DNA of 19,202 bases from a virus. Lineage: Duplodnaviria; Heunggongvirae; Uroviricota; Caudoviricetes. Both the position numbers and the translations under genes were made by a program. The notes beneath the pieces are model-generated. The model saw only the letters and a program-made list of their open reading frames with translations. It had not been told where the DNA came from and did not search any database. Shown here one piece after another: positions 11,554 to 17,862 of the stretch (positions are counted from its first letter, which is position 1; every line of letters begins with the position of its first letter). The stretch lies in IMG/VR virus record IMGVR_UViG_2526164689_000024; one strand, 5' to 3'.

Positions 11554-11877
11554 ATGAGCGCTATTACCAAAGAGCGACTGCTGACAATCAGGCAGTGGCG
11601 CGAAACATACGTACCTGGTAGCAACGTTGTACTGCCAGCAGAAGAAGCGGAAGAACTGGCACGGATTGCTCTGGCATCGCTGGAAGCAGAACCGGTTGGT
11701 AAATTGCATGAATACAAACCAGTGGAGTATCAACGTTCGGTCTACGAGTTAACCATGCTGGTAAAGCAGTTAGCCAGGCATCTGAAGAAAGCGAAGTTGG
11801 ACTGCAAATTACCGGATAAGGCGATGGACTATCTGAAGCGAAATGGACTGATAAGTGTGGAGGATGTTTTACGATGA
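11554..11877 (+). CDS. hypothetical phage protein
   Basis: ATG at 11554 (in frame with track ORF 11311..11877) preceded by AAAGGAGAG; 107 aa. Confidence 0.45.
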   Translation: MSAITKERLLTIRQWRETYVPGSNVVLPAEEAEELARIALASLEAEPVGKLHEYKPVEYQRSVYELTMLVKQLARHLKKAKLDCKLPDKAMDYLKRNGLISVEDVLR

Positions 11878-11957
11878 ACTGGCCTGAAGCCTTTGCAATT
11901 ACAGGCGTTGCTATGGCTATCGCTTTTTTAGTATATGTTATTTGTCGGTGGGGGTAA
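11874..11957 (+). CDS. tiny hydrophobic peptide (27 aa)
   Basis: hand-translated MNWPEAFAITGVAMAIAFLVYVICRWG; ATG overlaps the upstream TGA (ATGA); GGAGG 10 nt upstream; below track length cut-off. Confidence 0.3.
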   Translation: MNWPEAFAITGVAMAIAFLVYVICRWG

Positions 11958-11992
11958 AAACGTTCGCCGGGATTAACACCAAAGGAGGGAAT

Positions 11993-12097
11993 ATGTCGGA
12001 TGATATATCACTGGCAATGGAAGGTGCGCTGGCTGTTGTTGCTGTTGTGGGCGTTTACTGCCTGGTTGTGTTTTTGATGGATCGACTAGGGAACTGA
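11993..12097 (+). CDS. tiny hydrophobic peptide (34 aa)
   Basis: hand-translated MSDDISLAMEGALAVVAVVGVYCLVVFLMDRLGN; strong SD AAAGGAGGG 4-5 nt upstream; one predicted TM helix. Confidence 0.35.
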   Translation: MSDDISLAMEGALAVVAVVGVYCLVVFLMDRLGN

Positions 12098-12105
12098 ATT
12101 CATTA

Positions 12106-12127
12106 CGATATGGGAATTCCCATATCG
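12106..12127. repeat. perfect 22-bp palindrome CGATATGGGAATTCCCATATCG
   Basis: read directly; 11-bp arms centred on GAATTC; 8 bp after the stop of the 34-aa ORF, no flanking T-run. Confidence 0.85.
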
Positions 12128-12343
12128 GGTAAAAACGGTTTGCGGTAAAGCGAGAGTTAAGTAGAATTGCTGCGGGTGCTTGAGGCTATCTGCCTCAGGC
12201 ATGAACACCAAAAGGCAGATAGAGAAAAGCCCCAGTTAACATTACGCGTCCTGCAAGACGCTTAACATTAATCTGAGGCCCAATCTATGTCTCACAAATG
12301 TAGGTTAGCCTCTTACGTGCCGAAAGGCAAGGAGAAGCAGGCT

Positions 12344-12499
12344 ATGAAGCAGCAAAAGGCGATGTTAATCGCCCTGATCGTCATCTGTTTAACCGTCATA
12401 GTGACGGCACTGGTAACGAGGAAAGACCTCTGCGAGGTACGAATCCGAACCGGCCAGACGGAGGTCGCTGTCTTCACAGCTTACGAACCTGAGGAGTAA
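12344..12499 (+). CDS. hokD: Hok/Gef-family type I toxin (HokD/RelF-like)
   Basis: 51 aa MKQQKAMLIALIVICLTVIVTALVTRKDLCEVRIRTGQTEVAVFTAYEPEE, matches recalled K-12 HokD; an in-frame upstream ATG at 12287 would give 70 aa; leader contains a 10-bp inverted repeat. Confidence 0.8.
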   Translation: MKQQKAMLIALIVICLTVIVTALVTRKDLCEVRIRTGQTEVAVFTAYEPEE

Positions 12500-12567
12500 G
12501 AGACCCGGCGGGGGAGAAATCCCTCGCCACCGCTGATGTGTCAGGCATCCTCAACGCACCCGCACTT

Positions 12568-12596
12568 AACCCGCTTCGGCGGGTTTTGTTTTTCTG
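12568..12596 (+). terminator. rho-independent terminator at hok mRNA 3' end
   Basis: AACCCGC-ttcg-GCGGGTT stem followed by TTGTTTTT. Confidence 0.7.
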
Positions 12597-17099: not shown

Positions 17100-17531
17100 A
17101 TGTTTGGAATCTTCAAAAAGAAAACCCGCAGAGCGGCAGCGGAAATTAAAAAGTTTGAGAAACGCGATCTGGCACAGGCGGTGATTAACGCTGCATACCT
17201 GGTGGCCTATGCAGATGGTGAATGCGAGGCATCCGAGAAAGCGAAGATCGAACAGGTCTTACGTAATCAGCCTGCGTTGTCTGCGTTTACCTCGGAAATT
17301 AATGCGATTAGCGCAACTATTATCGGTCAGCTAGATACCAATTTTAAAATTGGTCGTCGTGCCGCGTTACGCGAGATTGAGGATGTGAAACACGATACGC
17401 GTGAAGCGGAAGATGTGCTGGATGTGGCGGTGGCCATTGCGGAGGCAGACGGCGAAATTGAGCCGGAAGAGCGCAAGGTGCTGGAAGAGATTGCCGGTGT
17501 TCTGGGTCTTCGTCTGGAGAATCACCTGTGA
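17100..17531 (+). CDS. TerB-like protein (tellurite-resistance TerB fold)
   Basis: 143 aa from ATG 17100 (AAGGA 8 nt upstream; track ORF begins at an upstream GTG 17028); two ADGE-type motifs AYADGECEASEKAKIEQVL and AEADGEIEPEERKVLEEIAGVLGL and N-terminal MFGIFKKK, parallel to plasmid TerB (MSFFDKVK..., ..SDG..E.., ..SDG...DDEK...IA..LG) as recalled. Confidence 0.65.
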   Translation: MFGIFKKKTRRAAAEIKKFEKRDLAQAVINAAYLVAYADGECEASEKAKIEQVLRNQPALSAFTSEINAISATIIGQLDTNFKIGRRAALREIEDVKHDTREAEDVLDVAVAIAEADGEIEPEERKVLEEIAGVLGLRLENHL

Positions 17532-17695
17532 CGGTAAAACTGCGCCTGGCTGTGGCTGCACTCCTGCTGTTTCTGGTGGTGATGGTGGATTTCACCAGCA
17601 GAATCATGTCGGTGCTGGCGGATGGGGTGCTGGTCTGCGGCATTGTGGTATTGCTGTGGCCGGTGATAAAAAGAAACAGCCTGCATAATGCTTGA
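17528..17695 (+). CDS. small two-helix membrane protein, translationally coupled to the TerB-like gene
   Basis: hand-translated 55 aa VTVKLRLAVAALLLFLVVMVDFTSRIMSVLADGVLVCGIVVLLWPVIKRNSLHNA; GTG overlaps the TerB-like TGA (GTGA); not in track in this frame. Confidence 0.35.
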   Translation: MTVKLRLAVAALLLFLVVMVDFTSRIMSVLADGVLVCGIVVLLWPVIKRNSLHNA

Positions 17696-17862
17696 TTTTT
17701 TTGTTTGCTGTTTATTAAAAACACTTCTGCATGGTGAATCCCCCTGTGCGGAGGGGCGATCAGCAACCAGGTATATGGGATAATCGCGGATTTAGGTGCT
17801 GATACTGAATTCACCGGGAGGCACCCGGCACCATACAAGAAAAAGAATGTGCATGCAAACAT

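Follow-up and report, generated by a model that had tools for sequence, protein, structure and literature searches.

The stretch of DNA analysed here, referred to as the window, covers 19,202 nucleotides (nt) of the IMG/VR virus record IMGVR_UViG_2526164689_000024 (Caudoviricetes), and carries two tandem, tiny hydrophobic open reading frames (ORFs) on the + strand just upstream of a hok gene. An earlier note, made from the sequence letters, had drawn attention to this pair, and its description of their coordinates and features agrees with what we find. ORF1 (11874–11957; ATG at 11874, TAA stop at 11955–11957) encodes a peptide of 27 amino acids (aa), MNWPEAFAITGVAMAIAFLVYVICRWG, and its start codon shares the tetranucleotide ATGA with the TGA stop (11875–11877) of a 107-aa ORF (11554–11877, + strand), its likely partner in translational coupling; the overlap, too, is as the note described it. 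ORF2 (11993–12097; ATG at 11993, TGA stop at 12095–12097) encodes 34 aa, MSDDISLAMEGALAVVAVVGVYCLVVFLMDRLGN, and is preceded by the near-consensus Shine-Dalgarno (SD) sequence AAAGGAGGG (11981–11989, + strand), which ends 3 nt ahead of the ATG and lies where RNA folding shows no significant structure (z = -0.98). Both peptides stay under about 60 aa and have one strongly hydrophobic stretch apiece, in line with the single helix predicted for each by the note: the highest 17-residue Kyte-Doolittle mean is 2.48 for ORF1 and 2.94 for ORF2, with 3.22 for Hok. The window holds 94 ATG-initiated ORFs of 25–60 aa in its six frames, so that an open frame of this length is not beyond chance; a helix-like hydrophobic stretch is found in three of the 94, two of which are the adjacent and co-oriented ORF1 and ORF2. 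The third (17582–17695) is an internal start within the annotated gene of a DUF3927 small membrane protein (17529–17696).

From the anatomy, conservation, selection pattern and linkage computed here, together with literature data on the translation of the Sakai allele of ORF2, we infer the membrane location, coupling, non-toxicity and role of the two peptides. On balance, they are more likely than not genuine single-pass inner-membrane microproteins, non-lethal and accessory, rather than type I toxins. This modest preference extends to the whole package, and much less confidence attaches to any specific role. It is highly probable that ORF2 is a real gene, and the case for ORF1 as a real gene is strong, nearly to the same degree.

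Relatives of both ORFs were collected by degenerate DNA pattern scans and tblastn. In most E. coli genomes the ORF1 ATG is the very point at which homology to the window starts, and the stop of a DUF551 gene in front of it forms the same ATGA. Pattern scans of IMG/VR yielded 56 ORF1 alleles in at least four clades; the window copy belongs to clade A of this family, whose members follow the pattern xWPEAF...CRWG. The clades differ at 24–29 of 84 nt (about 65–71% DNA identity) and retain the frame, the length, the overlap and the stop position; in a clade with about 70% DNA identity (e.g. MTWPEAFTTVGIAMAVALVVYSICRWG) the ATGA is preserved along with all 27 codons and the stop. The differences fall at codon positions 1/2/3 in the numbers 7/4/14 between clades A and B (third-position excess p = 0.0046) and 8/4/17 between A and C (p = 0.0004). 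The Nei-Gojobori ratio of non-synonymous to synonymous change (dN/dS) of clade A versus the others is about 0.07–0.16, while in the two control frames the uncorrected non-synonymous value pN is about equal to, or greater than, the synonymous pS. A scan anchored solely on the C-terminus of the upstream gene found ORF1 intact at ~85 of ~91 loci that bear it (about 93%), and one variant carries an in-frame 6-nt deletion. The family is present in 93 phage records, 933W among them, where an unannotated 27-aa homologue, MTWPEAFANVGTVMAVVLVVYSICRWR (58826–58909 of the record; 1501–1584 of locus L430), shares an ATGA with ST933Wp77 and is immediately followed by sokW/hokW; the block belongs to the leftward arm in that phage and to the rightward arm in the window. 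The ORF1 of ArgO145 is followed by another toxin-antitoxin pair instead of hok. The ATGA overlap occurs in the window, in loci L004–L007, in ArgO145 and in 933W; because it persists when the gene upstream is one of several different ones, and because in some phages ORF1 is not followed by hok, ORF1 goes with the upstream gene and not strictly with hok. An exact-sequence cluster look-up that placed ORF1-B in one cluster with 121-aa DUF551 proteins was discarded as an artefact, the peptide not being contained in those proteins.

The ORF2 of the window represents a clade, ORF2a, that is found in 673 of 5,426 complete E. coli genomes (at least 80% coverage of a 276-nt query) and is absent from 50,697 phage records; no ORF2 was found in any of the 72,556 plasmids searched, and 1.84 billion protein representatives include just 7 cluster representatives, near-identical ones, for the whole family. 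The ORF2a alleles show ~10 synonymous versus 8 non-synonymous changes (p = 0.007; dN/dS 0.07–0.26), and variants with ATG changed to GTG or TGA changed to TAA preserve the start and the stop. Inspection of the DNA between ORF1-B and hok in other loci revealed a second clade, ORF2b, of 29 aa (M-LVLKC(A/T)LAIxAVMAIYCLxxVLMD(H/R)LSD), whose GTG start comes 5 nt behind a strong SD, AGGAGG or GGGAGG. The two clades have the core ALAxxAVxxxYCLxxxLMDxL in common, and the comparison between them gives dN/dS of 0.15–0.39, with differences at codon positions such as 8/4/13 (third-position excess p about 0.01–0.015). ORF2b is present in 1,895 of the 5,426 genomes, including BL21 and REL606, and also in the phages Tritos, Evi, mEp460_ev081 and HannyBb; examples are L336 (2498–2587) and, from BL21, L428 (1524–1613), along with L143, L222, L227, L324 and others. 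It is unannotated in all 25 RefSeq matches listed, and it appears as 'membrane protein' or 'conserved hypothetical protein' in the original GenBank records of REL606 and BL21(DE3); a gene called as DUF977 in BL21 has its 3' end overlapped by ORF2b. A more divergent form, ORF2c (35 aa, MLALTCVLAIVAVLVIYCLVVAFMERFSDWRGRGS), was seen once, in strain S30 between a SIR2-family gene and hok (L429, 1229–1336), its frame continuing to just before the hok -10. In 185,579 species-representative genomes the family pattern matches just E. albertii, E. ruysiae and three contigs of metagenome-assembled genomes, which are short and bear the same ORF2b-hok DNA; judged by these matches, the ORF2 family appears to be restricted to Escherichia.

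Conservation of the frames in related prophages, which the earlier note had proposed as a check, is therefore found for ORF1 as well as ORF2, with an excess of synonymous change in the correct frame. Could the ORFs nevertheless be translated but functionless, having stayed open by chance and hitch-hiked with the 3' end of the upstream gene and the hok promoter region? Their shortness, the damaged and non-conservative alleles in ORF1 clade A, the confinement of ORF2 to Escherichia with so few protein representatives, and its easy loss would agree with this; some loci have kept the 3' remnants alone, namely the last codons of ORF2b, or those of ORF2a together with a palindrome that follows it. 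We regard this explanation as improbable, since in both families the third-position excess and a dN/dS well below 1 are seen in the correct frame only, the start, stop, SD and length are kept between clades with differences at roughly one nucleotide in three, nearly all ORF1 copies are intact in the sample drawn without bias, and the mosaic junctions coincide with the ORF boundaries.

The note's expectation that such ORFs are routinely missed by annotation is borne out by ORF1, for which the records of O111, Sakai and 933W have no annotation. It fails for ORF2, whose exact frame is annotated by PGAP as WP_001278454.1 in a near-identical O111 genome, with close alleles in further genomes, and which corresponds to ECs_5710 of prophage Sp6 in the Sakai reference, an allele that differs by V16I. 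The Sakai copy has moreover been listed as a novel translated gene, XECs145, and predicted to be an inner-membrane protein in the ribosome profiling (Ribo-seq) study of Hücker et al. 2017 (PMC5597208). In LB medium it had 79.1 reads per kilobase per million (RPKM) for RNA and a footprint RPKM of 346.1, with a ribosomal coverage value (RCV) of 4.35 and a coverage of 0.99; the RCV was 1.14 in brain heart infusion and 0.01 under cold and osmotic stress (PMC5597208). The gene was called there as a longer, 54-aa frame with its start inside ORF1 (PMC5597208), while PGAP annotates the 34-aa, SD-led frame, and it is this shorter frame that clade b conserves. ORF2 and XECs145/ECs_5710 are the same gene in the same place, between the DUF551 gene and the mok/hok locus; the paper that reported it describes no function, family or hok linkage for it (PMC5597208). 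Literature searches with the peptide strings, the WP accession and ECs5710 gave no match, none of the ORFs was matched in the supplements of the EDL933 Ribo-seq, EDL933 transcription start site and K-12 small-ORF papers, and the paper on hokW-sokW makes no mention of ORFs upstream.

The suggestion of the earlier note that the two peptides are typical of type I toxins did not withstand this comparison. The hok/sok locus is a textbook type I toxin-antitoxin system, and known type I toxins have their translation silenced in growing cells and usually possess basic flanks. With the toxins Hok/Gef, Ldr, TisB, Ibs and ShoB the two peptides share the small size, the single hydrophobic helix, the mobile-element context and, here, the adjacency to hok/sok. 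A lethal membrane peptide silenced by an antisense RNA would thus be conceivable for ORF1, ORF2 or both, given their prophage setting beside an established type I system, and two weak promoter-like sites are indeed present on the minus strand (12017–11990 and 11958–11930). However, the search for antisense promoters, another check that the note had proposed, gave these two sites against 1.2 +/- 1.1 expected by chance; they are not conserved in clade b, and the site at 12017–11990 depends on an ATG context that clade b does not have in common. The Rfam scan identified only sok (12174–12349), outside both ORFs; as the hok/sok locus begins at about 12174, ORF1 and ORF2 both lie outside and upstream of it. 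Neither peptide gave anything above noise in Pfam, PHROGs, NCBIfam, PADLOC or the PDB, and so neither matches a toxin family in the first four of these; the PTR2/POT and Cmr5 matches were rejected as sub-threshold hydrophobic noise. HOK_GEF (PF01848) is matched by neither ORF1 nor any member of the ORF2 family, while Hok itself is recognised with E = 1.2e-23. Comparison of the ORF2 family with Hok by hhalign gave a probability of 1%, by which ORF2 as a diverged Hok fragment was rejected, and ORF2 as a duplicate of ORF1 was likewise dismissed (hhalign probability 5%). Unlike the toxins above, ORF2a carries a net charge of -3, with acidic instead of basic flanks, and ORF1 is probably coupled to an ordinary upstream gene. 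Translation of ORF2 is not kept off in growing cells: its strong SD is open and unsequestered, and the Sakai allele is heavily loaded with ribosomes during exponential growth, as given by the RCV and coverage in LB, which place it among the small ORFs that are translated well. As ORF2 is efficiently translated in growing lysogens, it would not be growth-arresting at its native level. Taken together, we consider a type I toxin at this position very unlikely.

In the interpretation that we favour instead, that of non-lethal membrane microproteins, a ribosome ending the 107-aa ORF at UGA would restart on the overlapping AUG (AUGA) and translate ORF1 by termination-reinitiation, while ORF2 would be translated independently from its exposed and strong SD. 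Both peptides would be inserted into the inner membrane and have a modulating, non-lethal action there; the field of action of ORF2 would most likely be that of Hok (membrane integrity, lysis timing), or else it may have a moron-type function that benefits the lysogen. MgtS, AcrZ, MgrB and PmrR are small inner-membrane regulatory proteins of E. coli. ORF1 and ORF2 resemble them in having 27–34 aa, a single helix and short, SD-led or coupled ORFs of the kind often missed by annotation; they differ in being prophage-borne and confined to Escherichia, with no sequence similarity to these proteins and no known partner protein. ORF1 and ORF2 belong to the prophage-encoded small membrane proteins.

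The association of ORF2 with hok is strict. Each copy of ORF2a, ORF2b or ORF2c with enough downstream DNA is followed by hok/sok, while the upstream context varies (ORF1-A, ORF1-B, a reverse-strand gene, a SIR2 gene or a DUF977 gene); since all these copies stand before hok, whatever lies upstream, the inherited unit is ORF2 plus hok/sok. The distance from the ORF2 stop to the -35 of the hok promoter is 8 nt in clade b and 42 nt in clade a. Of the position beside Hok and a perfect palindrome, which had made the ORFs attractive to the earlier note, the link to hok is real for ORF2, as a genetic linkage; the palindrome travels with hok and not with the ORFs, as seen in the PPompW phages. Among 85 new loci anchored on hok, ORF2 was found in 17, ORF1 in 13, a further ORF, ORF3, in 19 and none of these in 36. 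ORF3 is a 59-aa membrane ORF with two helices (MKNALQFLFVAFWLFASCMPIIF...FLGVFMAVMCIEYWR) and an SD of its own, found in L330, L332 and about 30 other loci and widely annotated as 'membrane protein'. It ends 80 nt ahead of the hok -10 and replaces ORF1 between the same upstream gene family and hok. The slot ahead of prophage hok seems to collect small membrane genes.

A number of observations weigh against the interpretation of ORF1 and ORF2 as functional membrane microproteins. ORF1 looks weakly constrained within clade A: the common O157:H7 allele (L007, L247) carries A17D, which puts an Asp in the middle of the helix, and ~10% of the clade A alleles have W26*, W3* or a frameshift (in IMG/VR, W26* at 9 loci and a frameshift at one). 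The A17D and W26* alleles fit relaxed selection on ORF1 within this clade. In the helix-only codons of ORF1 the uncorrected pN/pS is 0.4–1.1, a weaker constraint that is as expected for a membrane helix, and dN is lowered in some codons because the pattern scans demanded certain conserved residues. Ribosome profiling, which the earlier note had suggested as a test, supports translation of ORF2 in the form of the V16I allele of Sakai, from a locus that is multi-copy in O157; the published ORF call is 57 nt longer than the 34-aa frame and the two ORFs are inseparable at their junction, and ORF1 with its 27 aa falls below the 30-aa cut-off of that study. The promoter scan detected no plus-strand promoter-like site ahead of ORF2. 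Finally, the identical Hok protein WP_000813254.1 occurs with ORF2a, ORF2b, ORF2c or no ORF2, so that there is no co-variation between ORF2 and Hok, and the strict adjacency of the two genes could be mere tight physical linkage.

The last point bears also on a more specific possibility, namely that ORF2 is a dedicated third component of some prophage hok/sok loci, which binds Hok and counteracts or potentiates its membrane damage, for example by protecting lysogens from leaky Hok or by tuning Hok-assisted lysis. Such a role would account for the location of the ORF2 family directly 5' of hok in 100% of checkable copies, which span three clades, five or more upstream contexts and three species of Escherichia, and it would agree with the translation of ORF2 in lysogens, with the conserved intramembrane YCL...LMD motif, and with the presence of other small membrane ORFs (ORF1 and the two-helix ORF3) in the slot before hok. 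However, most hok loci are without ORF2 (the 36 of 85 mentioned above have no small membrane ORF upstream at all), and it is missing at hokW of 933W and from the plasmids; Hok therefore does not need ORF2. The pairing of one and the same Hok with any clade or none, the short distance to the hok promoter, over which linkage alone can explain the adjacency, and the lack of any ORF2-Hok relation in hhalign also speak against it, and we regard a third component as a doubtful, though not negligible, explanation.

Comparison of the window with loci where ORF1 runs directly into hok reveals 175 base pairs (bp) of extra DNA, a cassette that contains the SD, ORF2a and the palindrome and is bracketed by an 11-bp direct repeat, GGGTAAAAACG, with its left copy across the ORF1 stop codon (11952–11962) and its right copy at 12127–12137. 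Between the same flanking genes ORF1 leads straight into hok in L004, L005 and 933W, while ORF2a lies between them in the window, and the loci that lack ORF2 have a single copy of GGGTAAAAACG at the ORF1/hok junction, which suggests insertion or deletion of the cassette by microhomology. The repeat was rejected as a target duplication of a transposon on reading the sequence, and because no terminal inverted repeats were found, microhomology recombination is the likelier origin. The palindrome (12106–12127, CGATATGGGAA/TTCCCATATCG) is a perfect one of 22 bp, for which the chance expectation in the window is 0.005, and includes an EcoRI site; its RNA would form a stable hairpin (-21.6 kcal/mol, z = -4.2), with no U-tract after it. 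The same palindrome is found ahead of hok in PPompW phages without ORF1 and ORF2, and some alleles (L006, L055, A30) have an imperfect version of it. It may serve as an operator or stabilise the 3' end of an RNA, or it may be a scar left by recombination.

Perhaps, then, the peptide is irrelevant, and translation of ORF2 together with the palindrome hairpin insulates the hok promoter and the folding of its mRNA in cis from early-operon read-through? The ORF2 stop does lie 8–43 nt before the hok -35 in all clades, and the stable hairpin stands between ORF2a and the promoter. But the amino-acid sequence of ORF2 is under purifying selection beyond merely staying open, clades b and c have no palindrome, and the hairpin has no U-tract, which makes this the least credible of the explanations that we weighed. 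Returning to ORF2a as an accessory membrane gene, its cassette can be compared with phage morons, additional genes that interrupt the series of conserved lambdoid genes and are expressed by the prophage, a concept reportedly due to Juhala and Hendrix. Like them, it is present or absent between ORF1 and hok, ends in a hairpin and is expressed in lysogen cultures; unlike them, it has no sigma-70 promoter or U-tract terminator detectable by scanning, and its GC content of 0.46 is near the 0.48–0.53 of its surroundings.

The window represents the immunity and early region of a lambdoid E. coli prophage, and the 1,101 nt around ORF1 and ORF2 are 99.9% identical to the chromosome of the O111:H11 strain 8D, whose annotation agrees with the gene order of the window. 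In succession come int, xis, exo and dicB, then a LexA-type repressor, cro, ydaT and replication genes; DUF1627, DUF977, DUF4406, DUF4752 and an Ea22-like gene precede the ORF1/ORF2 region; and hokD, DUF968, rusA, DUF1133, a methyltransferase, two tRNAs, terB and an esterase gene follow. All genes from cro on, ORF1 and ORF2 included, are on the + strand. The accessory block consists of the Ea22-like gene, a DUF551/PHROG-660 gene, ORF1, ORF2 and hok/sok. The 107-aa ORF upstream of ORF1 has a hybrid-like appearance, residues 1–57 matching the N-terminal parts of PHROG 60/3323 and residues 58–107 the C-terminus of PHROG 660, and PGAP calls just a 78-nt internal pseudogene fragment within it. Downstream of the cassette, all on the + strand, are the hok promoter, predicted by homology (12140–12167; -35 TTGCGG, 16-nt spacer, -10 TAGAAT), the 5' part of the hok mRNA with the sok antisense region (12174–12349; Rfam RF01794, 121.7 bits), a mok-type overlapping frame of 70 aa (12287–12499) that contains the hok coding sequence (12344–12499; identified by Pfam HOK_GEF), and, where the hok transcript ends, a terminator-like hairpin with its T-tract (12568–12585). 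The equivalent of this promoter, TTGGCG-17-TAGAAT, was called by the promoter scan in phage mEp460_ev081. Rfam also gave a match to isrK at 12508–12589, over the terminator and 3' end of the hok transcript; at 27.2 bits it stays below the gathering score of 50 and probably reflects nothing more than the terminator hairpin.

What was already known of this locus is that ORF2 is on record as a hypothetical, translated gene. For the ORF2a/b/c family, for its exclusive position before hok and for the ORF1 family with its unannotated copy in 933W, no earlier description was found in the searchable literature, and the same is true of a translated small membrane peptide fixed beside the hok promoter. 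ORF2a, ORF2b and ORF2c would together be shared by ~45% of complete E. coli genomes, only if the counts of clades a and b barely overlap, and the carriers of ORF2a and ORF2b include BL21, REL606 and enterohaemorrhagic strains. Prophage copies of hok/sok have been tied to phage release (PMC8621323). It is tempting to speculate, though we hold it to be rather unlikely, that a sizeable share of the Escherichia prophage hok/sok loci are three-part modules, in which a constitutively translated membrane peptide of 29–35 aa (ORF2a/b/c), encoded just ahead of the hok promoter, modulates or neutralises Hok at the membrane, and that the slot is a hotspot for alternative small membrane proteins (ORF1, ORF2, ORF3) acting together with Hok. 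If ORF2 does act with Hok, a system whose control is ascribed to RNA alone would gain a further layer at the protein level; otherwise, the locus would contribute two more conserved prophage microproteins, one of which, ORF1, is missing from reference annotations including that of 933W.

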